From the UHGV virus genome UHGV-1372291: 37,769 bases of DNA; one strand, 5' to 3'. The first letter of the stretch is position 1. Each line of letters begins with the position of its first letter. This DNA is from a virus. The notes beneath the pieces are model-generated. The model did no database searches, was not told the origin of the DNA, and saw only the letters and a program-made list of their open reading frames with translations. Of this stretch, positions 1 through 37,769 are shown in pieces. Position numbers and translations under genes: made by a program.

Positions 1-211
1 CTTTAGGACCTTGAATACCCTGCTCTCCAGTATCTCCCTTAGGACCTTGAGGACCTTGTATTCCTTGCTCTCCTTTTGCACCAGGTAAACCTTGAATACC
101 TTGTTCCCCTTGTATTCCTTGTTCTCCTTTAGGACCTTGAGGTCCGATATCTCCTTGTTCTCCTTTAGGACCTTGAGGACCTACAACATTACCTATAATT
201 AATTTTGGCAT
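1..211 (-). CDS. collagen-like tail-fibre protein, N-terminal part (C-terminal part of the gene lies left of the window)
   Basis: Minus-strand ATG at 209-211 preceded by GGAGG (revcomp of 213-223). Translation reads [38 protein letters not shown]..., continuous Gly-X-Y triplets to the window edge. Not in the ORF track because it is truncated. Confidence 0.6.
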
Positions 212-224
212 AATTAAAACCTCC

Positions 225-1604: not shown

Positions 1605-1612
1605 CTCTTTTC

Positions 1613-3124
1613 TTAATAATAAGTTGTTAGTGGTCCATCAAAACTATCTTTTAGATATATGCTAGCAAATATCATAGCAGTTCTAAATGAATCTGCGTCA
1701 TCAGAAGCTTTATCATTTGCGTCGTGGTCTGGTATATCTAAGTAACAGTTCATGGACTTGTTATATTTTTTGACATAGCCTCCTAATTGTATAACTCCTA
1801 TGTTACACTCGTTATTATCTATCTCTACATTGTCAAACTCCTTTCTTATATAGTTGATTTGATTTATTAATGTAGTCATATCATTTTTAGCTAGCTCTGT
1901 CTTAGACAGAGTTCTTACATCACTAAAATAATTTAATCTTATGTAGTCACTTCTTTTTGAAGTTGCACTCCATTCCTCGACATCTCCATCATGTGGTAGT
2001 ACCATAGTAGGCTGCATATAGTACCCATTATCTTTGCACCATTTCTTTATATATTGGCAGCAGTGGTCTGGTCCTTGCCCAGTAACTCTATAATGTTTTA
2101 TGAATCTAATTCTATTATTGTGAGGGTTTTTTTGAAAAAACCACAATACTGTATTGTCCCTTTTTCCTATATCCCAAGCAACATATAAAGGTTGTTGTGT
2201 CCAGAAATGCCCTGTGTATATTTGAGTATATCTTCTACTTACACTATCTAATAACTCTTCATACCTACCATAAAACTTTATCCTTTCATCTTCGTAAGCT
2301 TTTTTTAGTTGTTCTCCATACCAAGCACCAACTAGATGAGTATTGATTTTACATTCCCACTCTTGAGCGTATGAATCTGGGTCCATAGTAAGAGCTTGTT
2401 TTCTAAGTTCTTTATCATTTATTACTCTCTCCCCTTTATAGTTCAAGGAATCTTTTCCAGATTGAATATCTACATACCACATATCTTTAATTTCTTTATT
2501 TTCTGGTTTACTTAGGATAGTGAAGTAATCTATAAAAAGTTTAGTAAACCAATTATATTTACCCCTTGGTGTAGAGATAAATATTACAAAACCAAAGTCT
2601 GTGTTATTGATAACCATATCAACTGCAGGTTTCATATATTGATAGAACTTTTCTTTTATAAGTGCTGCCTCTGTATAAATAACTCCTCTAGCTCCTACCC
2701 CTACACTTGCGTCTGGGTTATCTCCTCCACGAAAGAAGATTTTTGCTCCGTTAAATAAAGTTACACTCCAATCTGATTTATTAACTTTAGGTCCTCTTGG
2801 ATTTGCTAGTATTTCATCTGGTATAAGATTTTCAAGTAAAGGTAAACCGTTTAATGTCTTCCCATCTACAACTATCTCCTTTACCTGTCTAAAATATGGT
2901 GCATAGATATAGTAGTTTCCTGGGTGTTGAATAGCTGCTAGTATCATAATGAGTAGTGAAATAAAGTCCTTTCCATATCTTCTATGAGCCATTAGTGCAA
3001 AATACTTTTTCTTATTTTCCAAGACATTGTCCAGAAGTTCTTTCTGTCCTTTGTGTAGATATTTAATAACTTTTTTATAACTGATGGTTACTCTTCTTTT
3101 TGCTGCTCTTCCTAAAAAATTCAA
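1613..3124 (-). CDS. terL: terminase large subunit (T4 gp17 / Terminase_6-like)
   Basis: 503 aa, TTG start with AAGGAGGTG RBS. P-loop-like 'MAHRRYGKD' (cf. T4 SRQLGKT), Walker-B-like 'VIYTEAA' (cf. T4 IYIDE), ATPase motif III '[12 protein letters not shown]', C-terminal acidic nuclease-type motifs '[10 protein letters not shown]' and '[14 protein letters not shown]'. Confidence 0.7.
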
Positions 3125-3148
3125 AACTCCACCTCCTTACCTGTTTGA

Positions 3149-3240
3149 TAAAATAAAAAAAGGACAACCCTTTTAGGTTGTCCTTTGATTTTTCTGTAAA
3201 TGGAAAAAGGCAACTCTAAAAGGTTGCCTGATTTTCTTAA
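3149..3240. terminator. two tandem bidirectional rho-independent terminator hairpins upstream of terL
   Basis: aGGACAACCcttttaGGTTGTCCTttgattttt and aaaaaGGCAACtctaaaagGTTGCCtgattttctt. Each is flanked by an A-run on one side and a T-run on the other. Confidence 0.6.
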
Positions 3241-3504
3241 AATTATTATATCATTAAATACTAAAAAAGTCCATAAAAAGAAAAGGCTGGTATAGTTGCA
3301 GCTATACCAGCGATGAACATACTAAGTCTTCCGTTCTTCTTAGTAATTAAATTATAACAAAAATAACTAGAAAGTTCAAGATATTTTTGTTATAATAAGT
3401 CTAGCCCACCAAGAAAGGGGGTGAACATCATTAAGTCTTTCGTTCTAAGACTAATAATACTGGTTATTCTGTTTTTCTTAGTAAACAGAGTTGCATTATA
3501 ATTA

Positions 3505-3540: not shown

Positions 3541-6500
3541 TTATTGTAATAATTCTATAACATTTTTAGCTATATTATAGTTAGTTGTATTTATTCCCAT
3601 TTTAATTAAGTTGGTAGCAGCTTTGTCTATATCTCCTTTAGATATATTTTGAATCAAATATGCAGGTCTAACTATTGCCATAGAACCAGTAGTTAAAGCA
3701 TAACTATTTATAATATTATCATCAAAGAAAGTCCATAATGCACTTCCAGGACTATCAACCATATCATTGAATTTATCTATTACAGTTCCTAATGGGTCCT
3801 CATAGAACTCTCCATCTTTTAATAGACTTCCAGCAACAACTACAACTCCTAATTGAATCATATAATTCATCATTCTTTTTTGCCATAATTTATTAGTCCA
3901 GTCCATTTTACCATTATTTACATTTGAATAAAATACATCAGTAGCAAGTCTTCTCCATTGTTCTTGTAGTGATGTCTTGAAAAATCCTGTCATTCTAGCA
4001 AAGTTTCTTCTTACATTATCATTTATCATATCTATTTCATTTCTAGCAGCTGCAGTAGCTTCAGTAGGGGAAATGTCAGATACCATTTTATCATAGAATT
4101 TTGTAACCTTATCTACTATGTCGTTTTTCATATAATTAAATTCATCATCAGTAATAATATCTCCTAGATAATTTTCTATGTCGGTCTTTTTTATACTATC
4201 AGAAAAGCTAATCTCATCATAAAGTTTACTATTTTTAAAGCTTTCTAAGTCTGGAATTTTTTTCATAAATTCAAATTCAAGGCTTCCAATATTTAAATCT
4301 TCTATCATTTTTTTGAAATAGTGTCCTTGAGAATTTAACAACTCATCTAAAGAACTGTATTTAGCAAACTTTTCTAAGTTCATTCCACCTAAAGAGTAAG
4401 CAGCAGCTTTAAGAGCTAATTGTGTATATTGATATAGATTTAATTTATTAAGTCCACTGTCTAAAGCTGAAAGTAGTTTATCTTGGTTGCTTCCATATTT
4501 AATCATTCTAGCTTTTCTATATCCTGTAAAATCATCTAATTCCCCAAGAATAGCATTTACATATTCTATTGGCATGGAGTTTTTAAGTTGTGCCATCAAT
4601 TCTGGTGTGTTATTAACATTCATCATTAAAGCTATAACATTATTCATAACTTGTTTGTAAGTTGTAAAAAATCCATCTCCACCATATCTTGAAATATTAG
4701 CTCTTACCATAGACATAGGTTCCATATACAACTCTCTAAAAGCTTTTGGTCCTGTAAGATTGATTTTACCATAAACAGAAGTATATTTTTTTACAAATCT
4801 GTCTAGTGAAGTTTCAATAGGTTTAGTAATATGTCCTAAATCTCTACCTAATTCAACATCAATATATCCTTCTAGTTCTCTCATGTAAGATTTAAAATCT
4901 CGGCTTAGGGTAGAAGTTTGCAATTCTCCTAATAATTTTTTAAAACCTTTATATCCACCTTGAGGGAAAGTTGATTTTATAGCTTCTGCATTAGAAATTT
5001 CATTTATTAATTTTTGTAAAGCTAATCTTCCATCAACTTTGTTATTGGCAACAAAATCCTTTACTTTAGATTTTTTGATATATCCTCTGTCTATCCAATT
5101 TTCAAATCTACCAAATCTATGAACTGCCGTTTCTTTTAAAGGGTTTTCCTCTGCTCCTTTGTAACTGTCCATATCTTCTGTGAAAGCTCTTCTAGCATTT
5201 TGTTTTTTACTCTCTATATTATTTCTGTCAAAATCTGTTCCAGGTAAATCTTCAAAAAAATCTTTATTATTTTTTAAGAATCTTTGAACTTCTGGATATT
5301 GTTCTAAATTATACTTAGAAATTATTTTAAATCTTTCATCACTTGGAATACAAGTTTTAATTTCTTTTAATCTTTGTATTATTTCATAAGGACTTGGATT
5401 TTCTTTTTTAATTTCAACTTCAAGTCTTTCTACGCTACTCATAAAAAAATCATAATTTCTTTCAGCAAATCTTTCTCTAGGGTCAACAAGTCTTTTAGGA
5501 ACATCTTTACCAGTAACAGGATCAGCAATCAACTCTCCATCTAAATATTTTTGTCCATCAAATTCTTTAGTTAATGTAGTTAAATATTTTTGAAGTTCAT
5601 CTTGAGATAATAACTTTTCAAGACTTAAATTACTATCATAGTTTAAATTGTTATATATATCTTGCACATTAATATCATAATCTTTTGTCAATTCTTTTAC
5701 AGTCTGATATAAAGTTTCTCTAATATCTTCTAGCTTAGGTTGAAGTTCTGCTAATTCATCTGGTAATTTTCTATTAAAACTGAATAAAAAATCTCTTAAA
5801 TCAAATTTATTCTCTTCAAATAAATCTAACATTTTTTCTAAATCAAGTTTTTGACCTTTATAATCTAAAGTAAATAAATTTAATAGTTTAGTTTTACTTT
5901 GCTCTTTAGTTTTTTGGAAAGGTAAAAGTATTTGAGTTTTTAAAAAGTCTTTAGCTCTTCTTGCTTTACCAGATAAATTTTCATTACTTCTATAAATTTT
6001 TCTAAGTCCATCTTTTATTTTAAAATATTTATTTGTTTCAGCTTTCAGCTTAGCTAATCTTTCAGAAACATCAATTTCATTTCCTGTTTCTTTAATTATT
6101 TTTTTAACTGCACTTACATCATCTTTATCTATAACTTTTGGAATATCTAGTTTTAACACTTCTACAAATTCTGGATTCAATTTATCTCCATCAACTAAAT
6201 TGTCCATAGCATTTTTAATAATGTAAGAAAGTTCAAAGTAATCATCAGAGTAATCAGCAAAATGTCCCCTATTAATTCCTTTTAAAACCTCTTCAATAGG
6301 CTTAGCACTATCCATAACCACTGGGTTAAATTCTTTACTTCTAAATTCTGGAGTATTATATAAATCTAAAATATGCTGTATTTCATGTCTTAATACTCCT
6401 ATCTGTGTATCTAAATCTTTTATTTTATCACTGATAGCAACTTGTAAAATCCTACTACCATCTTTATTTTTTTTGATGATAGTTTCTCCTAAGTGTTGAA

Positions 6501-9069
6501 TTTTTTTAGCTCCTACAAACTCAAAATCAATATTGTATTTAAATTTATAAAAATCTAGCATTTTCTGTATGCTATCAATATTATTTTTCTTTCTTACAGT
6601 TTTACCAAATTCTTTTTGAACTGCTAACATATCATTGGTTAGTTGTTCAGCACTTGTAAATCTTTTATTCAAATTCAATTTTTCTTTAAAGTATTGAATT
6701 ATCTCATTTTTTCTAGCAGCTTTAGATTTACTTTTAATCTTTGGTTCTGTTGTGTCAACTTTAAGTTTATATATATCTCCTACTATTCCATAAGAAGTTG
6801 GGTCTTGAGAGAAAAGTCCATGATATTTAGTGTTGCTAATAGTAAATTCTACACTCATTATCGCTTCTTTTTCTTGCCATCTACTCCTTGTGAATACAGG
6901 GTTTCCATCTGCGTCAACGCCAGTTTGGATAGGATATTTAGTTCTACTAACATATCCTTTAGCTTTTGTAACTTTTGCTTCTTTAGGAATAGCACCTTTT
7001 CCTTTTAAAACTTGTGTTATTTGGTCTTTGTTGTAATCTCTTGGGTTGTGTCTTATAACAGTTTTTTTATTTTCAAACTCATCAGCAGTAGTTTCATAAA
7101 TATGTAATTTTAAATCTTTTTTATCAATTTCATTTATTAAAACTGTTTTAGGCTTTTGTGGCTCCAATATTTCAGCAGGTGTTTTATTCCATAGTTCTAA
7201 GAAGTTGCTAAAAGCTTTTTTCTGCTCTTTACTTAATTTTTTTTCTTGCATAATCATTTCAGCAAGTTCTTTCATAAGTTGTGGTTCTTGAGTTATTAGT
7301 TGAGAAAATTCTTCTTTTGAATTTATTCCTAATTCTTTTATTGATATAAAAGTATCCATAACTATTTTACCATCAGTTTTAGGAACAGTTTCCATTATTT
7401 CTCTAGGTTTAAATGGTTCTATTCCCAATCTTTCTCTTGCTAGTTTTCTCATTTGAAGTTTATTTAATCTTTTAGTTTCTGGAATATCTATTTCTGGGAA
7501 AACTTCTTCTATTATATTTTTAGGTTGAACAGTAGGTAAAATTTGTATAGTTTCCTCATCTAAAGGGAATACATAACCTTGATAATCTCCTTTTTCATTT
7601 TTTCTAAAATCAGCAAAGAATCTTTTACCACTATCTATAAACTCTGATTTTATAACATAATTTTTAGTTTCTTTGTCTTTATATCCTCTAGCATATATAA
7701 CATCAGCTTCTTCTGGAATAATTCCAGTAATTCTAAGTTCTGATTCTAAAGCTCCTTTTTTAAAAATTTTATAATCATTTTTTATAGGTTGTCTTCTAGC
7801 TGCTAAATCTCCTAAGTCCATTCCGTTTATAGCACGTGTCTGGCTTACTCCGTATCTAGTAGTAATTACTTTTTGTATATTGCTTGGATAAAGAGTAGGT
7901 TCATATATAACTACTGGGTCATCAAAATTTTTTATTAATTGTCTTGCTACTCCATTCATATCAAGATATATATCAGTTATTTGATTTGAGTTAGTTACAT
8001 CATAGTAATATCTAAAGGCTTGTATGTCATCAGCTCCTAAAGATTTATTTCTTAATGCTCTGGATATAATAGTCCTCATTTGTTGTGGGTTGCTTTCTAG
8101 TAGTTCGTTGAAATCAAATACAGATTTTATGTTTGGGTATCTAGGGTCATCAATAACATTATTGATTATACTTGCTGTGTATTCTCTTATAATTGGTAAT
8201 TTAACAGAGTTTATCTCCAAGTTATCTGGAACTATATTATATAAGCTACCAGTCTTACCAAGGCTTTCATTGAATGGCATCATATTTTGAATTGTAGCTC
8301 TTGTTATATCTGGGTCTATCTGTCCAGTATATCCAAAGGAACTCCTTATATTCCTTATAACGTCTATTTCTGAATTTTTAATAGAATTTAATATTCTTCT
8401 GCTACCTACTCCAATTCCAGCAAAACCAACACTAGCAACACCACCAGTACCAGCCGCAAAGAAAAGTTCTTCAAGTGTAGGTAATCTATCTTCTGTGCTA
8501 TAAATATCATAAGATTCTTGAAGTGTATTCTCTACTGCTCCAGCTCCTGCTATAACTCCAATTCTTGCTAATTTAGAAACGGGGTTAATTACATTCAATA
8601 TTCCAGCACTCAACATATTTGTAGTTGCATTTACTGCGAATTGGTTAGCGTCTGTTAGAACTCTTATTCCCTCTGCTCCAAGTGTTGCTAAAGTTCTTTT
8701 AGTTAAATTTGGGTCAGAACCTAACATTCTTCTCATTCTGTCAAGACTAGCTTTAGAAACTTTTTTATAGTCTTCAACATACATTTCTAAGTCTTGTATA
8801 TCTTTTTCTAATTCTTTATCTTTATAAGTTCTAGCTAATTTTTTCTCCTCTGCTAACACAACCTCATTAGCAAATCTATTAAAGTTGTTCTTTATTTGTG
8901 TTCCTAACTCTTTAAAAACTTTTCCTTGGTCTATATCATATTTACTTTTACCTTTTGTTATTTCAAATCTATCAGCTATTTCTTTATTGTCTTGATAATA
9001 TTTATTTATGTCTACTATATTAGCCTCCCCATTTTTAGCTAAATACAGTGCCTTATTCATTTCAGTCAT
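3541..9069 (-). CDS. giant 1842-aa virion protein (podovirus internal/ejection-protein or tape-measure-like) with HExxH zinc-metallopeptidase motif
   Basis: Single uninterrupted ORF. 'RHEIQHILD' (HExxH) is encoded at ~6373-6387, about residue 895. Gly-rich hydrophobic N-terminal segments. Position after the virion proteins is analogous to T7 gp15/gp16. Start overlaps the upstream gene's stop. Confidence 0.5.
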   Translation of the reverse strand: MTEMNKALYLAKNGEANIVDINKYYQDNKEIADRFEITKGKSKYDIDQGKVFKELGTQIKNNFNRFANEVVLAEEKKLARTYKDKELEKDIQDLEMYVEDYKKVSKASLDRMRRMLGSDPNLTKRTLATLGAEGIRVLTDANQFAVNATTNMLSAGILNVINPVSKLARIGVIAGAGAVENTLQESYDIYSTEDRLPTLEELFFAAGTGGVASVGFAGIGVGSRRILNSIKNSEIDVIRNIRSSFGYTGQIDPDITRATIQNMMPFNESLGKTGSLYNIVPDNLEINSVKLPIIREYTASIINNVIDDPRYPNIKSVFDFNELLESNPQQMRTIISRALRNKSLGADDIQAFRYYYDVTNSNQITDIYLDMNGVARQLIKNFDDPVVIYEPTLYPSNIQKVITTRYGVSQTRAINGMDLGDLAARRQPIKNDYKIFKKGALESELRITGIIPEEADVIYARGYKDKETKNYVIKSEFIDSGKRFFADFRKNEKGDYQGYVFPLDEETIQILPTVQPKNIIEEVFPEIDIPETKRLNKLQMRKLARERLGIEPFKPREIMETVPKTDGKIVMDTFISIKELGINSKEEFSQLITQEPQLMKELAEMIMQEKKLSKEQKKAFSNFLELWNKTPAEILEPQKPKTVLINEIDKKDLKLHIYETTADEFENKKTVIRHNPRDYNKDQITQVLKGKGAIPKEAKVTKAKGYVSRTKYPIQTGVDADGNPVFTRSRWQEKEAIMSVEFTISNTKYHGLFSQDPTSYGIVGDIYKLKVDTTEPKIKSKSKAARKNEIIQYFKEKLNLNKRFTSAEQLTNDMLAVQKEFGKTVRKKNNIDSIQKMLDFYKFKYNIDFEFVGAKKIQHLGETIIKKNKDGSRILQVAISDKIKDLDTQIGVLRHEIQHILDLYNTPEFRSKEFNPVVMDSAKPIEEVLKGINRGHFADYSDDYFELSYIIKNAMDNLVDGDKLNPEFVEVLKLDIPKVIDKDDVSAVKKIIKETGNEIDVSERLAKLKAETNKYFKIKDGLRKIYRSNENLSGKARRAKDFLKTQILLPFQKTKEQSKTKLLNLFTLDYKGQKLDLEKMLDLFEENKFDLRDFLFSFNRKLPDELAELQPKLEDIRETLYQTVKELTKDYDINVQDIYNNLNYDSNLSLEKLLSQDELQKYLTTLTKEFDGQKYLDGELIADPVTGKDVPKRLVDPRERFAERNYDFFMSSVERLEVEIKKENPSPYEIIQRLKEIKTCIPSDERFKIISKYNLEQYPEVQRFLKNNKDFFEDLPGTDFDRNNIESKKQNARRAFTEDMDSYKGAEENPLKETAVHRFGRFENWIDRGYIKKSKVKDFVANNKVDGRLALQKLINEISNAEAIKSTFPQGGYKGFKKLLGELQTSTLSRDFKSYMRELEGYIDVELGRDLGHITKPIETSLDRFVKKYTSVYGKINLTGPKAFRELYMEPMSMVRANISRYGGDGFFTTYKQVMNNVIALMMNVNNTPELMAQLKNSMPIEYVNAILGELDDFTGYRKARMIKYGSNQDKLLSALDSGLNKLNLYQYTQLALKAAAYSLGGMNLEKFAKYSSLDELLNSQGHYFKKMIEDLNIGSLEFEFMKKIPDLESFKNSKLYDEISFSDSIKKTDIENYLGDIITDDEFNYMKNDIVDKVTKFYDKMVSDISPTEATAAARNEIDMINDNVRRNFARMTGFFKTSLQEQWRRLATDVFYSNVNNGKMDWTNKLWQKRMMNYMIQLGVVVVAGSLLKDGEFYEDPLGTVIDKFNDMVDSPGSALWTFFDDNIINSYALTTGSMAIVRPAYLIQNISKGDIDKAATNLIKMGINTTNYNIAKNVIELLQ

Positions 9070-11059
9070 TTATACCACCTAGTTTTAAAATAATTGGTTT
9101 ACCATCTTTGTCTTGAGCAACCATTCCGCCATACATAAATACTGCAACGTTTGCTCCAGGCTTGCTTGAAACTCTTAATTCTTTTTTTCTGATATTGGTT
9201 CCGTTGATGTAAAACTCGTTATCAGCTACAAATGTATTTATTCCTTTTGCTATTTCATCAGCATTAGCGTTTTCATCAGTTAAAATCATTCCATATTTAC
9301 CAGTATCAACAGTTTTATAATTTATTATTTTAGGAATAATACTTGCCATTTTTCTATCAACATTTTTTCTAACATCATCATTTTCATTGTAAAAAGCTTG
9401 TAATACTTTGGTTTTTTGTTCTTTATTCAACGAATCTAAGGTTACATCAAAAACTTCTAAGTCTGCTTTTTTAGCTAAGTCTTTAGTAAGTATGCCACCA
9501 GTTTGTCTAAATAATTCAACTTTTATGCTATCACTATACATTTTTTCAAAATCTTCTATAAATCTATTAGAGGCTTTATCTCCTGCTAAAGAGGCAGCGT
9601 TTAAAGCTTCTAGTGTAGCCCCTGCTGCTGGAGTAGTAGATTCTTTAACATAATAAGAATTTAATACATTTTCATATGCTAAAGCTACTTCTGATGATAT
9701 ATTAAATTTTTCTATTCCATCAAAATTAGCAACTTCTATTCCTTTGAAACTTTCTATTGTTTGTCTGTTTGTAGAATCATATAAGTCATTATAAAGAGAT
9801 TGTACTTCTGGTTGAGAAAAATATGCTCTTGTAAGCATGCTTCCACCAGCAATATTTTTATTGGTGCTATCTAAATAATCTTCTGATATTTCTTTACTAC
9901 CATAAGAACCTGTATTTTTAACCATTGCTTCTGCTCTATCATTCATTATTGAGGCACCATTTAAAGTGGTATTATCATAAATATGGTCTGTGTTATCAAA
10001 TCCCTTTTCTTGCCACCCCATATCCAAACCTAACATATTAGCTTCCTCTACTGAAGATACATTTGTGCCATTAATTTCATTTATTATTTGGAGTTGCACA
10101 CTTTCTGGTATAGGATAATCTTTAGGAAGTTTACTTTTCTTTATATAGTATTCTCTAGGCTTAGTTTTTCTTTTCATATCATCTTCTATTTGTTCAGCTA
10201 AAGTCATTTCTCCAGCCATTTTTTTTCTGTTTTCTATTCTATTTATTGAAGATGATATTGTGCTTTTAAATTTTTTGTATTCATCAATACCAAGTCTTAC
10301 TTCTCCAAATTCACTAGAAAATTGTAAATCTTTATAATGATATATAAATTCCTCTGGTGTCCACTTATCCATTTGAATTAATAGTTCTTCTCCACCAGGC
10401 ATATTTTCATATGACATAATATTACTTTCTATAAGAGTTGGAATCTGTTCTCCTAGTGTTTCTATTGCTTTAGCTTTGGTTATAAATTCAGCGTCAATCA
10501 TTTTTTCTAAATCATCAACTAAAGAGTAGAAATTATTAATTCCTCCTGTATAATCTCCATTTAAAAATCTTGTATTTAAATTTTCTTTTTTTTGAGCTAG
10601 AATAAATTCTGCTTCATCTTTTTGAATTTTCTCATTATAGTCATTATATTCAACTAAATAATTTACATTTGATTTTTCAAGCTCTCCTGTTACCATAGAA
10701 CTATATTTTTCTAATATAGAATCATCTATTCCTAATTCCTTTCCATCTTTTTTAAATTGCTCTATATTAGCTTTTATTTCACTCTCTAAAGAGTTATAAG
10801 AATCAAAATTATGGAATAATTTTTTATTTATTTTTCCCTGGTTATCTCTATCTAATATCATTTTAGACATAGAGGCAGCAAATTGCTGCCCGAATGTTTC
10901 TGCTTGTATTAAGTCTTGTTTTTGTTTTTTCTGGAAAAGTTCCTCAAGTTTACTAGCTGCATTTCTCTCTACTCCAAAATCTGCAGCTATATTTAATTGT
11001 GGTAGTGCTCTACCAGTTGGTCTATTTATTTTTAAAGGTTGTATTAGTGTTCCTGCCAT
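9062..11059 (-). CDS. virion structural protein (665 aa), function unknown
   Basis: Large ORF in the structural operon; its stop overlaps the giant gene's start. Confidence 0.4.
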   Translation of the reverse strand: MAGTLIQPLKINRPTGRALPQLNIAADFGVERNAASKLEELFQKKQKQDLIQAETFGQQFAASMSKMILDRDNQGKINKKLFHNFDSYNSLESEIKANIEQFKKDGKELGIDDSILEKYSSMVTGELEKSNVNYLVEYNDYNEKIQKDEAEFILAQKKENLNTRFLNGDYTGGINNFYSLVDDLEKMIDAEFITKAKAIETLGEQIPTLIESNIMSYENMPGGEELLIQMDKWTPEEFIYHYKDLQFSSEFGEVRLGIDEYKKFKSTISSSINRIENRKKMAGEMTLAEQIEDDMKRKTKPREYYIKKSKLPKDYPIPESVQLQIINEINGTNVSSVEEANMLGLDMGWQEKGFDNTDHIYDNTTLNGASIMNDRAEAMVKNTGSYGSKEISEDYLDSTNKNIAGGSMLTRAYFSQPEVQSLYNDLYDSTNRQTIESFKGIEVANFDGIEKFNISSEVALAYENVLNSYYVKESTTPAAGATLEALNAASLAGDKASNRFIEDFEKMYSDSIKVELFRQTGGILTKDLAKKADLEVFDVTLDSLNKEQKTKVLQAFYNENDDVRKNVDRKMASIIPKIINYKTVDTGKYGMILTDENANADEIAKGINTFVADNEFYINGTNIRKKELRVSSKPGANVAVFMYGGMVAQDKDGKPIILKLGGIND

Positions 11060-14084: not shown

Positions 14085-14783
14085 TTACCTTTCATTTTCT
14101 TGTGCCTCCTCTAGTATAATATTTTTCTTATACTTGTAATATGTATTCTTAGTTATCCCTAGCAGTGTAAAGACTTCTATATCTTTAAGATTTCCTCCAA
14201 AATCTTTAGCTAGTTTTTTAATTTTCTCTCTCATCTCCTTTTCTTTCTTGGTAGTATAAGTATCTCCTTGTTTTCTACCTAATACAGTTCCTTTAGCTTT
14301 GGTAACTCTTAGTCCCTCTTTTGTTCTTTCTCTAAGGTCTAATACTTCCTTTTCAGCCTGGTCAAATGCTATTTTAATTTGTTCTTGAGCTAATATCTTC
14401 AATACTTCATTGGTTGCGTCTATGTATATATCAGCTATTTTATTTCCTGTTGAATCTATTTTGTTTTCTAAAGCCTTTTTATAAAGGGCTGTGTTAATAT
14501 ATCCCTCTTTTAAAAATATAAGTTCAATATCTCTTTCTACAAAATTAAAATATTCTTTTATTCCCTCTTCTGCATTTCTACTCATTCTACTAACAGAATC
14601 AAATACAATTGTATCTCCAGGTTTAACTATTTTTTTTAGTTTACTCCATTCTTTCCTATCTGTTGTAGTTCCTGTGTATGCTTCTTGAAATACTTTAGCA
14701 GTTGGATATATCTTTATGATATTTTCCACCTGTCTTAAAATATTTTGTTTTTTTGTAGATACTCTGCAATAACCATATATCAT
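14085..14783 (-). CDS. small serine recombinase (resolvase/invertase family: Hin/Gin/Cin or plasmid resolvase type)
   Basis: N-terminus 'MIYGYCRVSTKKQNILRQ' (catalytic-Ser motif YxRVST). 'GDTIVFDSVSRMSRN'. Arm 'AEKEVLDLRERTKEGLRVTKAKGTVLGRKQGD'. C-terminal HTH 'LLGITKNTYYKYKK'. Confidence 0.8.
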   Translation of the reverse strand: MIYGYCRVSTKKQNILRQVENIIKIYPTAKVFQEAYTGTTTDRKEWSKLKKIVKPGDTIVFDSVSRMSRNAEEGIKEYFNFVERDIELIFLKEGYINTALYKKALENKIDSTGNKIADIYIDATNEVLKILAQEQIKIAFDQAEKEVLDLRERTKEGLRVTKAKGTVLGRKQGDTYTTKKEKEMREKIKKLAKDFGGNLKDIEVFTLLGITKNTYYKYKKNIILEEAQENER

Positions 14784-15318
14784 CTTTTATCTCTCCTTTT
14801 AGTATTTATTCTGTCGTTCGTTTCACTTAATACCATAATTATACTATTTTTAGAGATAAAAAACAATGTACTTTTAATACTTTTTTTAATAGGTTTGTTT
14901 TGATACTTTTTTGTGTTTTCTACTTTTTATATTAGTGGTTAAAACTATAAGTAAAAATTGTTTAGGTACAAAGTCACAATCTTTGTATTTTTTACACCTA
15001 CAATATCTAACTTTACTTATAACACTTACTATTTTTTTACCTCTCGGTAAAACTTTATATTTTACTTTGCTATGGTGCTTAGTTTTTTTCTTTTTGTTCC
15101 AGGTTTTCATTTGTTGCCTCCACAAAGATAACACATTCGTTATCTTTTCTTTTGTAGTTGTAACATTCTGGAATGAATCCAGCCGTTTCTAAAGCGACAC
15201 AATAATTTTAAGGTTTTTGAATATACAGCCAGAGCAATCCCCTCTTGATGACTTTAAAACTAATATTTTCTTATTCCCAAAAGTAAATTCTTTTCCAATT
15301 TCAAGATTTTTAAATTCT

Positions 15319-21545: not shown

Positions 21546-21759
21546 TTTCTTCTTTTGCCTCCTTTGTAAATATCTCAATATATAAACTATTTGCTCCTGT
21601 TATCTCCTTTACTTTACCTGTTGTATCAACTCCTTTTTCATTCATGATAGAAACTCTATTGAGTTCGAGCATTAAGTATAGTTCGATTAGTCTTTTTAAA
21701 GCTCCATCATCTCTATATCTTCTCTTTAACTCTTCGTACTCTTTTCTCTCTACTGTCAT
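21538..21759 (-). CDS. hypothetical small head-module protein (73 aa)
   Basis: ORF overlapping the portal stop (ATGA) and the scaffold start. Confidence 0.35.
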   Translation of the reverse strand: MTVERKEYEELKRRYRDDGALKRLIELYLMLELNRVSIMNEKGVDTTGKVKEITGANSLYIEIFTKEAKEEND

Positions 21760-23267
21760 TGCTCTATCATTCCCCCTTGTTGTTGTGCAGCTATCATAGC
21801 ATTCATTTCCTCAACTTGCTTTTCTGTTTCCTCTCCAGATTTCCACTCTTTGTTATTGATTCTAAACCTTTTTTGTTGAGCATTTATGTATTCTGCTTGG
21901 TTCATATTAGCTGCTGCAACTTGAGGTCCCAGAGTGCTTGCTATATTTTGGAAATACAACATATTTCTTTCAAGGTCATCTTGGTCTTGTGCTATTGTTA
22001 GTGCATTGTAGAATCTTATCTTTAATCTTGGATTTTCCTGTAAAGCTTTAATTTTAGATATATCTATAATGCTAATCTTTTGTAGACATTGGAAAACTTT
22101 TATAACTATCTCTCTTAAAAGTTCCCTTTGCATTAGTGCATATGTTGGCTCTATTTGCTTAGCGAACTCTGTTGTTACTAGCTGTGTTGTTGTAGCAGTA
22201 ACATTCTTTAGCTGGTCTAAGTTTTGAGCCGTTTCAAATATGTTGATGTAGAATATATCTCTTAAAAGTTCCTTGTACATATCCAGGTTAAAGAACTCCA
22301 TGTTAGCATTCTCTCCCCTGTTGAAAGGTATTATTTGATTTTGCCCTGGGGATTGTCCCATCATAGATATAGCTCCTGGCTCATCTATTCTTGAGTTCTG
22401 AATATATTTAGCTTGCCCATAACCTAAATAGCTTGGTCTAGCCTGTTTCTTAGCAATACGTCTGATGTTAGCTTTAACTTCTTTTAGCCCCTCAATCTCC
22501 ATTATCGCTTTAACACAAGGTCCTATACCATATGGACTATCTCCAATGCTTTCGTATCTAGCTATTATCCAAGGGTTATAGTCATCAATTCTATAATCTA
22601 AAATATCTGTAAACTCATTTGAAGTAGATACTACATAGTGAAACATTTTAGTTTCTTGGTCGTATATTGTACCTTCCCACAACTCAATCTCGTCATCTTG
22701 CGACATACTTTGAACTTTTTCAGAGTTATAAGCATTTTCTCCAAAAAGATTAAGAATCTGATGTTTTCTCACTTTACCTGCATTGTAGAATGTATCTCCA
22801 GGTTGTTTACCTCTTCTTTTAGTAAGATAAACATTTATATTGGGTACTGGTTGAAATTCCACAGGATTTGCAATTTTACCAGTAAATCTAACTTTGAATA
22901 CTGCTGTTCCTATTAGATAGTCCATAAGAATTACAGCTTTCTCTGTTTCAAAGTTAGAATTTTCTTGAATCTCATCAAATACTATTTCTGTTATTCGTCT
23001 AAAGATAATCTTGTCATCTCTTGATATATCTTCAAACCTTGGTGTTTCTATCCAAGCCCAGATATGATTACTATTAAGTATCATAGCTGATAACTTGTTA
23101 GCTAACTTAGTAGCATATGCTAGTCCTGTACTGTCTACACCATTTAAATTAATTTCTCTTGGTAGAAAATGTGTTCTAGCTTTCAAATACCAAGCTAGTA
23201 TTACATTTCTTTCCTGTTGTGCCTCCTGGAATCTACTACGAAATAGATTTTTAATTCTATCTTCCAT
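21756..23267 (-). CDS. portal protein
   Basis: 503 aa, directly upstream of the scaffold and capsid genes; size and position fit a portal. No catalytic motifs are expected for this protein. Confidence 0.55.
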   Translation of the reverse strand: MEDRIKNLFRSRFQEAQQERNVILAWYLKARTHFLPREINLNGVDSTGLAYATKLANKLSAMILNSNHIWAWIETPRFEDISRDDKIIFRRITEIVFDEIQENSNFETEKAVILMDYLIGTAVFKVRFTGKIANPVEFQPVPNINVYLTKRRGKQPGDTFYNAGKVRKHQILNLFGENAYNSEKVQSMSQDDEIELWEGTIYDQETKMFHYVVSTSNEFTDILDYRIDDYNPWIIARYESIGDSPYGIGPCVKAIMEIEGLKEVKANIRRIAKKQARPSYLGYGQAKYIQNSRIDEPGAISMMGQSPGQNQIIPFNRGENANMEFFNLDMYKELLRDIFYINIFETAQNLDQLKNVTATTTQLVTTEFAKQIEPTYALMQRELLREIVIKVFQCLQKISIIDISKIKALQENPRLKIRFYNALTIAQDQDDLERNMLYFQNIASTLGPQVAAANMNQAEYINAQQKRFRINNKEWKSGEETEKQVEEMNAMIAAQQQGGMIEQ

Positions 23268-31390: not shown

Positions 31391-32515
31391 ATGAGTCAAG
31401 AAAAATATAATCTAATACATCATAAAGATTTCCATAATCTCCAATTACAAAATTATTCAGTAAAAGAAAGAGCAGTTTTTTTAGCTCTTTGCTTAAAGAT
31501 TATGGAACAGGAAGATGAAGTTGTAACTTTTAAAGTTTCAGAGATTTCAAAAATTGCAAATTATTCTGCAAGAAAAAAAGGAGATAATATTTATAGTTTT
31601 TTAAAAGAATTAAGTGATAAGCTTTTAAAATTACAGGTTATGCAAATAAGAAAAGATGAAGGATTTACAAATATGGTCTTGTTTCCAACCTTTTCAGTAG
31701 ATGAGAAAGAAAAAACAGTTAGAATAAGAATAAATCCAGACTATAAATATTTGTTAAATCATTTACAAGCTCCTTATACAATTCAAGCTTTGATAGAATA
31801 TTCTAATTTAAAATCTGGATATTCACAACTAATGTATTCTATTTTGAAAAAGTGGAATAAAATAAAAAAAGTAACTATAACTCTTGAAGATTTTAGAAGA
31901 GAATTAGGAGTTCCAGAAAGCTATGATACAGCAGTTATAAATAAAAGAGTATTGCCTCCTATTATGAAAGAGTTACCACAATATTTTGAAGGTTTGAAAG
32001 TAAAAAAAATAAAAGATGGTAAATTTATAAGTGGGTTTGAGTTTACCTGGAAAGATAACAAGGTTGATGATGTAGTAGTTGATGAAGAGGAAATAGAGAT
32101 TTCAGAAGAGTTACTATCAGCTATCGAGAAAGCAGAGAAAAATAGATTTATAAAACCTTTCTTAACTGATGATAATATAATAAAACTTTTAGATAAATTT
32201 AGCCAAGAGCAATTAGAAAAAGGATTGAAAGCTGCTTATGATTTAATTAAAACAGAATTTACAAGTCTTAATTATTTGATAAAAGTTATTGAAGATAGAT
32301 TGAATAAACCTAAAAGAAAAATAGTTATAAGAAGAACTAAGGAAGCAGAAAAAATAAAAGAAGTTGAAGAGCCAGTAGTCAAGAAAAAAACAACTCCACT
32401 AACTAATGAAGAATATCAAAATGCTATGAAAATATATCAAGCTACTGGAGAGGATTTTGGTTATGAACCAGAGGAAGTAAGAGAGTATATAAAAAAATAC
32501 AAGGATTTAATATAG
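31391..32515 (+). CDS. rep: iteron-binding replication initiator (Rep_3/RepB-like)
   Basis: N-terminal 'NLQLQNYSVKERAVFLALCLKI' matches the Rep_3 NxLxxAxYxLSxxExRL motif. Placed immediately downstream of iterons and an AT-rich region. Confidence 0.65.
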   Translation: MSQEKYNLIHHKDFHNLQLQNYSVKERAVFLALCLKIMEQEDEVVTFKVSEISKIANYSARKKGDNIYSFLKELSDKLLKLQVMQIRKDEGFTNMVLFPTFSVDEKEKTVRIRINPDYKYLLNHLQAPYTIQALIEYSNLKSGYSQLMYSILKKWNKIKKVTITLEDFRRELGVPESYDTAVINKRVLPPIMKELPQYFEGLKVKKIKDGKFISGFEFTWKDNKVDDVVVDEEEIEISEELLSAIEKAEKNRFIKPFLTDDNIIKLLDKFSQEQLEKGLKAAYDLIKTEFTSLNYLIKVIEDRLNKPKRKIVIRRTKEAEKIKEVEEPVVKKKTTPLTNEEYQNAMKIYQATGEDFGYEPEEVREYIKKYKDLI

Positions 32516-32524
32516 GGGGGTAAA

Positions 32525-33283
32525 ATGAAAATAATATCATTCATAACAGAAAAAGGTGGCACTGGTAAGACTACTGGTGCCAGAGAAGTTGCTGGGGTAT
32601 TATCTCTAGTTCATAACAAAAAAGTTTTGCTTATTGATTGCGACTTTCAACAAAATCTAACTGAAAGTTTAATAGAAGCAGACCAAGAAAAAAATATATT
32701 TAGAGCTATAAAAGAGAAAGATTTAAAAGGAAATATAATTCCTATTGAAAGAGATGGAAAACATATATTAGATTTAATACCTGCAAGTCTTAATTTAAAG
32801 GATTTAGAATATAAAAAAGATAGTGTTGATATGGAGATGATTTACCTGGATTTAAAAAGGGGACTAGAGCAACTCCAAGAATATGACTATATAATTATAG
32901 ATTGTAGACCAGATATGAGAGCAATAGAAAGGGCTGTGTTAAAGTGTAGTAATTATGTTATCACTCCTGTTGAAGCTCATCTATTTAGTTTTAGAGGGTT
33001 TGAATTATTGGAGAACTTTATACAAGCTCTTAAAAAAGATTTAAACACTCCATTCATTCATTTTGGTTATATAAATAGGCTACAAAATGATAAAGAGATA
33101 TTAGAAGCCACTGAAGATGTCAGAAATTCTTTTGAAAACATATTAGATACTCCTATAAGAGATAATCTTAAAATATTTAAAGCCTCACAGACAGGACATT
33201 TTATAATAGAATATAGTTCTACATCAAATGGGGCTAAGGATTTTAAAGCTCTTACAAAGGAGTTGTTAAATAAATGGCAATAA
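32525..33283 (+). CDS. parA: ParA/Soj-family partition ATPase
   Basis: Deviant Walker A 'KGGTGKTT' at the N-terminus; 252 aa. Confidence 0.8.
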   Translation: MKIISFITEKGGTGKTTGAREVAGVLSLVHNKKVLLIDCDFQQNLTESLIEADQEKNIFRAIKEKDLKGNIIPIERDGKHILDLIPASLNLKDLEYKKDSVDMEMIYLDLKRGLEQLQEYDYIIIDCRPDMRAIERAVLKCSNYVITPVEAHLFSFRGFELLENFIQALKKDLNTPFIHFGYINRLQNDKEILEATEDVRNSFENILDTPIRDNLKIFKASQTGHFIIEYSSTSNGAKDFKALTKELLNKWQ

Positions 33284-33939
33284 AAATAAATAGAAAACCT
33301 ATAATTTTAAAAAAGAAAGAAAATACAGAAGTAATTATTCCAGAAAAAAATGACATAGAAGATATATTGAAATATGATTATAACAAATTGGAAAATTTTT
33401 CAGATGATGATAAAAATCAATTAATTATATTTGAGAAAAGTATTATCACTAAAAAAGAAAATATCTCTTCTTTAGCACTACAAATAGGACAAAACTTAGA
33501 AGAGGCAAGAAAACTATTTGATAGATACTCTGAAAATCCAAGTTCATATATGGAGTGGTACCAAGCTTTAGGATTTAATAAAGACCAAGTATCACTACTT
33601 AGAGGGAGATATAAGTTATCTTTAAGCTATCCACAATACAACAATTTAATTTCAGACTTTTCAGACAGAGAAGTAAAAGCTTTAGTGAATAAAAAGGTTA
33701 ATGTAAGAATCCTTGAGAATATTTTATCTTCTGGAATAAGAACAGATAAAGAGATAAGAAAAGCTATTTCGAGCATGCTCGAAATAGAAGATGCCGAGAT
33801 AGTAGAGGAATCTGAAAAAGATAAGCTGGTATCCAGACTATCGGAGGTAGAGGCGAAAATCAGAAAATTAGAGGAAGAGTTGAAAGAATTGAAAACTGTT
33901 AAGGCTGAACTAAAAGAAAAAATAAAGGGGTTGAGTTAA
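33274..33939 (+). CDS. putative partition DNA-binding protein (ParB/ParG-like adaptor)
   Basis: Overlaps the parA stop. Basic N-terminus and a coiled-coil C-terminus. Assignment is by position only. Confidence 0.4.
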   Translation: MAIKINRKPIILKKKENTEVIIPEKNDIEDILKYDYNKLENFSDDDKNQLIIFEKSIITKKENISSLALQIGQNLEEARKLFDRYSENPSSYMEWYQALGFNKDQVSLLRGRYKLSLSYPQYNNLISDFSDREVKALVNKKVNVRILENILSSGIRTDKEIRKAISSMLEIEDAEIVEESEKDKLVSRLSEVEAKIRKLEEELKELKTVKAELKEKIKGLS

Positions 33940-35479: not shown

Positions 35480-36514
35480 CTATATTTCATAGCATTTTAC
35501 TGATGAAATTTCATTAATTTTACTGATAAATTCATCTATTTTTATATTTTTATTTGCTTCCATAGATTTCAATTGAGCTTCAATAGCATATACATTATTT
35601 ATAAACTCTGCTCCAGCTAATCTCATTTTTCTTAAATCTGTTTCAGTCATCAATGAAATATCATTGTCATTAAATGCCCAATTAATAGTTTTTTCTGAAG
35701 GATTCTCACTCAATCTATTAATCATTGAAAAAGTTTGACTATCATTAAGTGCTGCTACTGCATTTCCAAGTAAAGCTAAATCTTTTTCACGGCATCTTTG
35801 TTGGTGACCATCGTAGTTATAACCAGTATCTAGTATTTGTAATTTATAAGAGTTTATTTTATTATAATAATATTCTTTTACTTCTTCTTCTGTTGCTATA
35901 TCTTCAACTTTTTCTAGTTCCTTATTCCAAAATGGTTTTACTGTATTTTCTGGAATTTCTACTTTTTTAATACTATCATTTTCAACTATTTCATAATCTT
36001 CAAGTTTTCTTTGTCCTCTTTGGTATTTTTCATACTCTGTTGCTTCTCTAATTATATTTCCCTCATCTATTGAGATATAGAAAGGGATATCTTTTCCAAA
36101 ATGACTATATACCTCTTTTTGAAAATATTGATTAGGATTTTTTAAAGGTTTTGGAAACACTGCTATTACTTGAGATTTATGGAACTTATCAGCATAAGCT
36201 TTATCTAAATAGAAGTATTGTTTTTCAGGGTCTACCTCAACTTCTTCATCAAAATCACTTTCTACTTCTTGAATTTCTTCTGATAACATTCTAGGTGCTA
36301 TTTCTTCTAACTCAATAAGTTCTTCAATATTATCTAAAGATTCATTATATTTGAATTTATGAGGAATATCTATCCCTTCATAGATTAGTATTTCTTGAAC
36401 ATTAAAACATTTTTTTCTTGCTTCAAGCTCTTCTTGACTTATTTCTATTTCAGATACAGCAATACATTTTGCTATACCTTGTTTTGCTAAAATTTTATCT
36501 AAATAAAATAACAT
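35480..36514 (-). CDS. hypothetical acidic protein (344 aa) between tail-fibre switch and lysis genes
   Basis: ORF with AAGGAG RBS; no motif recognised. Confidence 0.3.
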   Translation of the reverse strand: MLFYLDKILAKQGIAKCIAVSEIEISQEELEARKKCFNVQEILIYEGIDIPHKFKYNESLDNIEELIELEEIAPRMLSEEIQEVESDFDEEVEVDPEKQYFYLDKAYADKFHKSQVIAVFPKPLKNPNQYFQKEVYSHFGKDIPFYISIDEGNIIREATEYEKYQRGQRKLEDYEIVENDSIKKVEIPENTVKPFWNKELEKVEDIATEEEVKEYYYNKINSYKLQILDTGYNYDGHQQRCREKDLALLGNAVAALNDSQTFSMINRLSENPSEKTINWAFNDNDISLMTETDLRKMRLAGAEFINNVYAIEAQLKSMEANKNIKIDEFISKINEISSVKCYEI

Positions 36515-36538
36515 TTTATCAACTCCTTTTTATAATTT

Positions 36539-37074
36539 AAAATGTTTGGGTATTTAAAAATTTCTGTCCATTTAAAGTAGGAGATATCTACTTAACTACT
36601 AACTCCACTAATCCAAGTTCTATATTTTTAGGTACTACTTGGCAGAAAATAGAAGGTAGATTCCTACTTGGTACTTCAGGTACTGGAGCTAGTAAAGCTA
36701 CTGGTGGTAGTAACTCTAAGACTATTGCTCAAGCTAATCTTCCTAATGTCAAACTGACTGTTAATAGTTTTTCTTTATCAAGAGGAACTATGGATATTAC
36801 AGGGATAACACCATGGGGCCCTTATCGTTCAGAAGCTGATAATAGTGGAAAACCTCAACCAAAAGGTTCTTTTTATTGGAATAAAGAACAGGCTGGACAA
36901 TACTTTCCCGCTGGACTTAGAACTGAAAGTGCTAGATTAGCATTCCAAGCTTCAAGAGCTTGGACAGGAACTACCAACACAGCTCAACCTCAAACAGTGA
37001 ATTTAGGTAGTGGACAAGCTTTAGATATTACACCTTCTTACTATACAGTTCATATGTGGCTTAGATTAACTTAA
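36539..37074 (+). CDS. promoterless, start-less alternative tail-fibre C-terminal segment (Sv'-like)
   Basis: The open frame begins right after a stop at 36536-36538 with no usable start codon. It encodes NVWVFKNFCPFKVGDIYL...GTTWQKIEGRFLLGTSG...ANLPNV...HMWLRLT, paralogous to the C-terminus of the minus-strand fibre 37066..>37769 (KNFCPFPVNSLYL...GTTWAKQEGRFLLGSS...ANLPSHTH...NIWKRLS). Confidence 0.6.
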
Positions 37075-37540
37075 TCTTTTCCATATATTTACGACCAAAT
37101 AAGGTGGCATAATAGAGAAAGCTGTTCCACTTCCTGTACTTCCTATTGAAGTTACTGGAGAGGCACTTCCTGTTGTTTCTCCTCCAGCACTAGAGGCTGT
37201 TGCAGATGTTTCAGGATAATTTTCTCTCCAAGGAAAAGAAGGTCCTTGTGTCCCAGCCCCAGAATAACCTCTAGGTAATGTTAGTGTATGTGTATGTGTT
37301 GGTTGAGTATGAGTATGAGCAGCAGTAGTTGCACTATGTGTATGACTAGGTAAATTAGCAACAGATAGTTTAACAGTGCTAGCTCCACCTGTACTACCTA
37401 AGCTATAACTAGAACTACTACCTAGTAAAAATCTACCCTCTTGTTTAGCCCAAGTAGTACCTAACCAAAGGATAGATGGATTCTCACTACCTAAGCTAAG
37501 ATAGAGAGAATTTACTGGGAAAGGACAGAAATTTTTAAAT
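36552..37540. mobile_element. candidate invertible DNA segment (tail-fibre host-range switch) bounded by exact 18-bp inverted repeats
   Basis: ATTTAAAAATTTCTGTCC at 36552-36569, and its exact reverse complement GGACAGAAATTTTTAAAT at 37523-37540. Both lie inside coding sequence in the same reading frame (encoding FKNFCP). Confidence 0.55.
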
Positions 37541-37769
37541 TTCTCATCAACTTCTGTTTCAAGTGCATATATGCTTAAATCTGGTTTATTTATTAGTTTT
37601 TCATAATCAGTAGTTCCAGGTTGACCGTTTTGTCCTGGTATCCCTTGTTGACCTCTAGGGGCAGTAAAATCATATGTGCTACCATTAGTTAAAGTCACAG
37701 CATAAACATTTCCACCATCTTCATTAGTATTCTTAAATGTTATACTTTTTACTCCTACTCCATCAGCTC
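37066..37769 (-). CDS. tail-fibre protein with collagen-like segment and phage tail-collar-type C-terminal domain; 5' part beyond the window
   Basis: The frame is open to the window edge (ADGVGVKSITFKNTNEDGGNVYAVTLTNGSTYDF...). 'GQQGIPGQNGQPGT' collagen triplets. 'ANLPSHTHSATTAAHTHT' and a C-terminal 'MPPYLVVNIWKRL' are typical of tail-collar domains. Confidence 0.65.
   Translation of the reverse strand, partial: ADGVGVKSITFKNTNEDGGNVYAVTLTNGSTYDFTAPRGQQGIPGQNGQPGTTDYEKLINKPDLSIYALETEVDEKFKNFCPFPVNSLYLSLGSENPSILWLGTTWAKQEGRFLLGSSSSYSLGSTGGASTVKLSVANLPSHTHSATTAAHTHTQPTHTHTLTLPRGYSGAGTQGPSFPWRENYPETSATASSAGGETTGSASPVTSIGSTGSGTAFSIMPPYLVVNIWKRLS

Follow-up and report, generated by a model that had tools for sequence, protein, structure and literature searches.

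Tail-fibre inversion switches are textbook knowledge for phages Mu and P1, where serine invertases operate them. The version that relies on a tyrosine invertase (Rin) has, to our knowledge, been described once, in bifidobacterial prophages. In this Rin shufflon of Bifidobacterium prophages, multiple inversions generate several isoforms of a receptor-binding protein, and for a phage inversion locus devoid of recombinase it has been proposed that the enzyme is supplied in trans (Mavrich et al. 2018, PMC6109161). A catalogue of tail-fibre inversions exists as well (PMC9881135). Here we analyse the virus genome UHGV-1372291 (37,769 nucleotides; "the window" hereafter means this whole stretch), in which two alternative fibre tips face each other between short inverted repeats at the end of a tail-fibre gene.

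An earlier note on this DNA had proposed an invertible cassette of the Mu G/P1 C type served by a small serine recombinase encoded about 22 kb away. Our analysis upholds the architecture, the crossover at the constant/variable boundary and, for homologous loci, the existence of both orientations, but not the serine enzyme. The explanation that we consider probable, on balance, is a two-cassette fibre-tip inversion switch belonging to a family served by tyrosine invertases, the copy in the window being an orphan that is either locked or flipped only in trans.

Results

Fibre gene, tip cassettes and crossover sites

The window is a complete circular phage-plasmid of ~37.8 kb and ~29% G+C that was linearised inside the fibre gene. 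The open reading frame (ORF) of this gene runs from position 211 to 1 and then from 37769 to 37066, and relatives or independent assemblies (L106, L108, L109, L121 and L123) align straight over the junction. The earlier note had taken this minus-strand gene to be long; with the circular genome opened within it, it encodes 304 aa, including an N-terminal collagen repeat. Both its tip and the cassette facing it score above the Pfam gathering threshold for PF21939 Gp10_C (E = 4e-14 and 1.7e-12; 54.2 and 48.9 bits, cut-off 27). The two tips share 35% identity; their N- and C-terminal stretches are conserved, and their centres diverge. The facing cassette is silent: a TAA stop (36538-36540) directly precedes it, and its first in-frame ATG, GTG or TTG lies only at 36790.

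An exact 18-bp inverted repeat, ATTTAAAAATTTCTGTCC, lies at the two ends of the segment (Table 1), with no third copy in the window, and can be extended to 28 nt with 86% complementarity. When up to 3 mismatches were allowed, shuffled sequences (n = 100) gave a mean of 0.45 matches versus four observed, two of which are exact. The codons under the repeat read F-K-N-F-C-P, in identical phase in both copies, and inversion in silico produces an in-frame fusion of 320 aa. Sequence and translations therefore bear out what the earlier note had said of paralogous tips converging with a 9-bp overlap, of a plus-strand copy that has no start codon and directly follows a stop, of exact repeats on homologous FKNFCP codons in common phase, and of continuity of the frame after inversion.

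The silent cassette shows dN/dS values of 0.32-0.52 against its homologues and, by this measure, is under purifying selection. Cassettes of its FKVGDIYL type are the expressed ones in L124, L088, L105 and L116. The two tips of the window also differ in composition, since a HxH-rich run (SHTHSATTAAHTHTQPTHTHT, 37270-37330, minus strand) occurs in the FPVNS tip only and not in the silent FKVGD tip; we take it to be reminiscent of the metal-binding HxH motifs of T4 fibre tips.

Together with its outer arm, the right core includes an 8-2-8 dyad, AGAAATTT-AA-AAATTTCT. Across sites, a G at -3 mirrors a C at +12 in 87%, and the outer arm shows no conservation in its outer 4 bp. The core can be read equally well as a 6-8-bp spacer with arms, and the AA-centred dyad would suit either recombinase class and decides nothing between them. 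The half-site AAATTTCTGTCC does not occur elsewhere in the window and, as far as we know, the core is unlike gix or hix. A longer repeat (46 nt at 80% identity) lies inside the two cassettes.

Inversion isomers and the family of loci sharing the core

Homologous loci occur in both orientations. L116 and L087 have collinear flanks (7.4 kb at 96% and 2.5 kb at 92% identity), whereas the 986 bp between their cores are 99.4% identical but inverted, with breakpoints in two 21-bp overlaps. Likewise, L015 and L097 are isomers of each other (99.9% identity in the flank and 99.4% in the segment), as are L017 and L105 (98.2% in the segment), and the four-site loci L003 and L040 differ by the inversion of 3.4 kb at 98.5% identity. 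In a single metagenome, L001 and L003 join one constant region to two different cassettes, both junctions being seen. The breakpoints of every isomer pair fall in the 18-21-bp core and never in the 46-nt internal repeat. The inversion switch is real as a class.

Scanning for the core, by itself or together with the constant region, retrieved 13 IMG/VR contigs and 51 metagenome loci. In 80 loci fetched from these scans and by other routes, the core precedes an open Gp10_C-type cassette, and each family locus has 2 to 6 sites. At least eight unrelated constant regions (shafts) end in ...EK/ET-FKNFCP, and the cassettes behind the core are of the FKVGDIY, FPVNSLY, FPIGSVLPMW, YAVGDIY and other types. 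Counting all relatives, the core stands in phase before ~140 cassettes, as it does in the window. A given outer flank may adjoin as many as six different cassettes, and the reverse holds too, with the junction always in the 18-mer. The 24-nt outer flank plus core on the left side of the window segment, for instance, precedes six different cassettes in other loci. The core is kept at the nucleotide level though the protein diverges directly after it, and it is also kept in non-coding flanks. Silent and expressed cassettes have similar dN/dS (0.15-0.5), which indicates that silent copies are probably expressed from time to time. An exact search of the viral contig collection with a 30-mer from the constant region of the window gave no match.

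The pair L116 (8177-9162) and L087 (8978-9963) presents a further peculiarity, namely that identity is higher in the inverted segment (99.4%) than in the phage DNA on either side (92-96%), which suggests that tip cassettes may move between phages, possibly via the common core. L111 (IMGVR_UViG_3300029460_000002, 3673-9817) contains six cores and two genes for tyrosine recombinases, and its two convergent fibre genes have a central segment in common; either a single shufflon serves both fibre genes or inversion has given rise to a chimera in the assembly. In L110 (IMGVR_UViG_3300045988_179322, 10-3318), next to an 86%-identical tyrosine recombinase, two copies of the core have one and the same substitution at position 8 (ATTTAAAATTTTCTGTCC, FKIFCP), while another copy has this substitution and one more. 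Copies would be expected to change together in this way were position 8 part of the strand-exchange (spacer) region, which hints at an overlap of 7-8 bp.

A tyrosine recombinase linked to the site

In L003, two invertible segments flank a gene for a tyrosine recombinase of 318 aa. The protein contains PF00589 and SAM-like N-terminal domains, resembles XerA, XerC and XerD, has intact RHR-H-Y residues and has no arm-binding domain. Homologues with 80-100% identity are present in 24 loci, within ~1.4 kb of a core; the stop codon of the recombinase gene lies 7-18 bp from a core in 22 of them. All loci with at least three sites carry the gene. In the reverse search, the five viral contigs retrieved via the recombinase alone all carry the site, or its FKIFCP variant, next to the gene. 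The closest named relatives of the enzyme are "integrases" encoded next to the fibre gene in the Fusobacterium phages Funu1 and phiRTG5 (48% identity). We infer that the tyrosine recombinase would be the catalyst of inversion and would be able to act in trans.

The window itself has no such gene. A tblastn search of the circularised window with the tyrosine recombinase of L003 and the large serine recombinase of L002 found no homologue, and a Pfam search of essentially all window ORFs of at least 150 aa detected no tyrosine recombinase. The single recombinase was the serine enzyme at 14085-14783, the only one in the window, as the earlier note had stated.

In integrated relatives (L002, 673-2067; L120, which is Funu1, 1-1197), a large serine recombinase is the prophage integrase. 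In these relatives a serine enzyme thus serves for integration, alongside a tyrosine invertase.

Orientation in the phage of the window and its sisters

The DUF4376-like protein encoded beside the segment in the window was found, exact, on 8 contigs (9 blocks). At three of these places, identity to the window is 99.4-100% and the orientation is that of the window. A 94-aa ORF of the silent cassette, callable as a separate gene only in the window orientation, was found on exactly those 8 contigs. All 8 contigs are thus in one orientation, with the FPVNS tip expressed in every assembly, but they may not be independent (the samples are possibly related) and assemblies give the majority orientation only. 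Among 5.8 billion proteins there was no near-identical match to the fibre inverted in silico; the best full-length matches of this fusion were the non-inverted isoform of the window phage (55%) and a sister phage (61%). The earlier note had named a single orientation across samples as evidence against the switch; the 8 contigs come close to that situation, as seen in assemblies and not in reads. The sister podophage L124 (~75% nucleotide identity) carries the homologous module in the opposite state. Therefore, the module would have flipped at least once since the divergence of these two phages, or been acquired separately in each.

The inverton and the DUF4376-like gene form a mosaic module (~35500-37576) that is absent from sister phages. 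In five sister genomes (IMG/VR 3300045988_163332 and others), the similarity to the window ends at 37576 and resumes near 35500; the gap holds another, non-invertible fibre C-terminus and two genes on the same strand, and an inverted cassette is absent. No copy of the core (up to 2-3 mismatches) was found in the retrieved parts of the sister genomes, _163332 being covered fully by L063, L091 and L108. The DUF4376-like protein might be a fibre chaperone or an accessory protein.

Replicon and probable host

Besides the genes listed in Table 1, the window encodes a Sak single-strand annealing protein, a Gp157 homologue, a RadC-like gene, a peptidase-like endolysin and a holin, and it has two collagen-like fibre proteins in all. 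The number of Gly-X-Y repeats in the shaft varies among assemblies of the window phage, giving fibres of 304 aa (window, 1-211 and 37576-37769) or 355 aa (L121, 2382-3449). The assembly sizes agree with one another (38041 - 119 = 38049 - 127 = 37922 = 37769 + 153), an arithmetic that would fit circular contigs bearing k-mer overlaps and a shaft longer by 51 collagen codons.

The host is probably a member of the Fusobacteriaceae, because the Rep3 protein is closest to initiators of Cetobacterium and Fusobacterium plasmids (36-42% identity) and one assembly of the window phage comes from a human gut metagenome. The portal protein had remote phage matches only (23-25% identity), which say nothing on the host. 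A blastn search with 36400-37769 found nothing among INPHARED phages or PLSDB plasmids, and the window as a whole has no nucleotide relatives in either set. A scan of genome contigs with the 21-mer core returned eight single matches, seven of them chance matches outside any fibre context, and did not identify the host; the sole real cassette was that of L011, on a plasmid-like contig of a Clostridium sp. metagenome-assembled genome (MAG).

Table 1. Location of the predicted inverton, the recombinase gene and other features in the window
Feature	Coordinates	Strand	Remarks
Predicted invertible segment, 989 bp	36552-37540	.	Two convergent fibre-tip cassettes, 3' ends overlapping at 37066-37074 (9 bp); homologous segments are inverted between otherwise collinear contigs
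Silent cassette, FKVGDIYL type	36541-37074	+	173 aa from FKNFCP; no promoter, no start codon; Gp10_C fold
Expressed fibre gene, 3' part	37066-37769	-	Constant region to ...EVDEK-FKNFCP, then FPVNSLYL-type tip with HxH-rich run
Expressed fibre gene, 5' part	1-211	-	ATG at 211, then collagen Gly-X-Y shaft; joined to 37769 over the circular junction
Left crossover core, silent side	36552-36569	+	ATTTAAAAATTTCTGTCC; with outer arm (36544-36569) GTTTGGGTATTT-AA-AAATTTCTGTCC; central AA at 36556-36557
Right crossover core, within the expressed fibre ORF	37523-37540	-	With outer arm (37523-37548, minus strand) GATGAGAAATTT-AA-AAATTTCTGTCC
DUF4376-like gene (weak match), 344 aa	35480-36514	-	Immediately downstream of the inverton, outside the segment; no PHROG match
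Small serine recombinase, 232 aa	14085-14783	-	Candidate invertase of the earlier note; 21.8 kb from the segment
Large terminase	1613-3124
Virion protein, 1842 aa	3541-9069
T7-type portal	21756-23267
Rep3 initiator	31391-32515
ParA	32525-33283
ParB-like gene	33274-33939

Discussion

The explanation that we favour can be formulated as follows. The constant collagen-like shaft ends at ...EVDEK-FKNFCP, and the 18-bp core over these codons recurs, inverted, before the promoterless second tip. Recombination within the core would flip the segment, so that the FKVGD tip would replace the HxH-rich FPVNS tip in frame, the new junction being the constant ...GATGAGAA, the core and ATTTAAAGTAGGAGAT. The tips presumably bind receptors. 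This switch would belong to a family of phage fibre shufflons that is widespread in samples from the human gut, with Fusobacteriaceae as the probable hosts. The cognate enzyme of the family would be a Xer-like tyrosine invertase without arm-binding domain, encoded by a gene that usually ends 7-18 bp from a site. The module of the window would have arrived as a mosaic insert and, because it came without the tyrosine recombinase gene, would be an orphan inverton. It could flip only if a co-resident shufflon-bearing prophage supplied the tyrosine invertase in trans. In the populations sampled to date, it would in effect be locked in the state that expresses the FPVNS tip.

Several observations weigh against this explanation. 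The link between the tyrosine recombinase and the site is genetic only and drawn from assemblies. Many two-site loci have no recombinase within 8 kb, yet both orientations occur among them (L116 and L087), so some enzyme would have to act on orphan copies; for this reason the trans model stays alive. The others bear on the proposal of the earlier note that the serine recombinase of the window is a Gin/Hin-type invertase acting over 22 kb; for such an enzyme, the cores would be 12-2-12 sites and AA the crossover dinucleotide. The AA-centred dyad of the core would also suit a serine recombinase. The enzyme is the only recombinase of a complete genome, its catalytic motifs are intact and its C-terminus is helix-turn-helix-like by sequence, but Pfam gave no such domain. 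Its PHROGs family, phrog_125, is labelled "DNA invertase", a label that belongs to a generic family of small serine recombinases. Moreover, three phage-plasmid contigs in which the site is present but a tyrosine recombinase is not visible (the window, 2806310874_000002 and OGZI01000637.1/178662) do carry a small serine recombinase, and in the two others the homologue (61% identity) lies 2-3.3 kb from the same inverton. Nevertheless, we consider a serine invertase improbable here. Orthologues with 99% identity are kept in the same context in the five sister genomes, which lack the site and whose fibre is non-invertible, and ~19 more distant homologues (39-54% identity) have no site in their flanks. 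Among PDB matches, the comparison with Gin suggested by the earlier note placed Sin/Bin3 and gamma-delta resolvase above Gin, and the match to the NCBIfam Mpi model reached 58 bits for a cut-off of 272. In two other phage-plasmid lineages with both gene and site, the gene lies behind Rep/ParA/ParB, a resolvase-like placement in the replicon backbone. No copy of the half-site is found near the gene in the window, all 8 contigs show one orientation despite its presence, and elsewhere the identical site is tightly linked to the tyrosine recombinase. The product of 14085-14783 is, more probably, not part of the switch and would be a resolvase or serve another function of the phage-plasmid backbone.

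It may also be that the module, once acquired from a phage with a shufflon, does not invert at all in this lineage, so that silent cassette and second core would be remnants yet to decay. The lack of a cognate recombinase in the window, the single orientation of the 8 contigs, with no inverted isoform on record, and the status of the module as a recent mosaic insert all agree with such a relic. However, both cores are perfect, the silent cassette of 173 codons is intact with a strong Gp10_C match, dN/dS is below 1 family-wide, comparable two-site loci without recombinase occur in both orientations at 99.4% identity, and L124 is in the opposite state. We regard a frozen relic as rather unlikely, bearing in mind that it overlaps with the orphan inverton that we favour, from which it differs only in whether flipping in trans ever happens. 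By contrast, RecA-type homologous recombination between short repeats, which would make isomers without any dedicated enzyme, appears highly improbable. Inverted repeats of 18-28 bp and the 46-nt repeat inside the cassettes are indeed available to it, but we rejected this cause since breakpoints always lie in the core and never in the longer repeat. Furthermore, an 18-bp repeat is shorter than the usual length for efficient RecA recombination, the core is conserved in nucleotides across diverging cassettes and in non-coding flanks, and a dedicated recombinase gene adjoins it in 22 loci.

Upstream of the serine recombinase gene, over its likely promoter, we observed two direct repeats, AAAAGTAT(C/T)AAAA (~14870-14910, minus strand, ~21 nt apart). 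The motif is also found twice upstream of a 54%-identical homologue in L070. Its statistics are weak, as 3 of 100 shuffles reach the same count; these repeats may be the binding site of the recombinase itself or a res-like site.

A broader reading, possible although we hold it as doubtful, is that the FKNFCP core is a portable site, such that the tyrosine invertase of one prophage would flip the tips of unrelated co-resident phages that have no invertase of their own and would mediate the exchange of cassettes between them. Such a site would explain why at least eight unrelated shafts end in the same core, why orphan two-site invertons occur in both orientations, and why inverted segments (99.4%) are more similar than their flanks (92-96%). 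If true, host range would be shuffled in trans at the level of the community, across podovirus-like phage-plasmids and myovirus-like prophages.

Under the orphan-inverton explanation, the family would belong to the second, tyrosine-dependent kind of fibre switch, distinguished by its own site and by Gp10_C tips. It occurs widely among phage contigs of the human gut and would include unannotated examples in the cultured phages Funu1 and phiRTG5. The family, its site, its likely host clade and the orphan configuration appear to be undescribed, and we found no described fibre inverton of a Fusobacterium phage in the searchable literature. The likely hosts, the Fusobacteriaceae, are a clinically watched group. 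The invertase-less copy of the window offers a concrete test case for host-range switching by the recombinase of another prophage in trans, a question that bears on host-range prediction and on phage design against Fusobacterium. It also calls for caution in annotation: the sole recombinase encoded by a genome need not operate its inverton, and an "integrase" next to a fibre gene may be an invertase.

The cultured phages Funu1 (KR131710) and phiRTG5 (OR492272) share with the other loci the gene order fibre, reverse-strand partial ORF(s), tyrosine "integrase", DUF4376-like gene and lysis genes. In-frame inverted repeats, unannotated, lie in their fibre genes and before the reverse ORFs (L114, which is Funu1, 4675-5930; L115, which is phiRTG5, 5048-5939): TTGGAAAATTTC, coding for LENF, and TTGAATAATCT, coding for LNNL and present in three copies. 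Funu1 has a separate serine integrase remnant at the genome end and, therefore, its fibre-adjacent enzyme is a second recombinase. These repeats are probably fibre shufflons missing from the record annotations, and we found no description of an inverton in either phage in the searchable literature. Both phages differ from the window in core sequences, in tip domains and in having a recombinase of their own.

The serine-invertase switches, namely Mu Gin/G, P1 Cin/C, e14 Pin and p15B Min, resemble the locus of the window in having crossover sites within the fibre ORF at the constant/variable boundary, alternative C-termini in opposite orientation and a host-range switch as the outcome. They differ in that the window has no adjacent, dedicated invertase of the Hin/Gin family, the site of its relatives being linked to a tyrosine recombinase, and no chaperone gene (the equivalent of U/U') within the segment. 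We know of no reason to expect a Fis-type enhancer in these hosts. In the sfx sites of plasmid R64, the conserved block consists of the spacer and one arm (~18-19 bp) and the outer arm is poorly conserved; the core described here can be read alike, and we presume that the family works by a mechanism similar to that of Rci/sfx.

The Rin shufflon shares with the window a constant N-terminal gene fused in frame to alternative C-terminal cassettes, with a short repeat before each, and with the relatives of the window a Xer-like tyrosine enzyme without arm-binding domain at the edge of the cassette array. For the window itself, which has no recombinase of this kind, the likeness is one of architecture. 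The site is the 18-bp ATTTAAAAATTTCTGTCC here and the 11-bp TTCCCTAACCC in Rin, the tips have the Gp10_C fold instead of a TP901-1-like one, and the hosts belong to different phyla, those of the present family being probably AT-rich Fusobacteriaceae. Finally, the cassettes form convergent pairs here, whereas they are arranged in tandem arrays in Rin.

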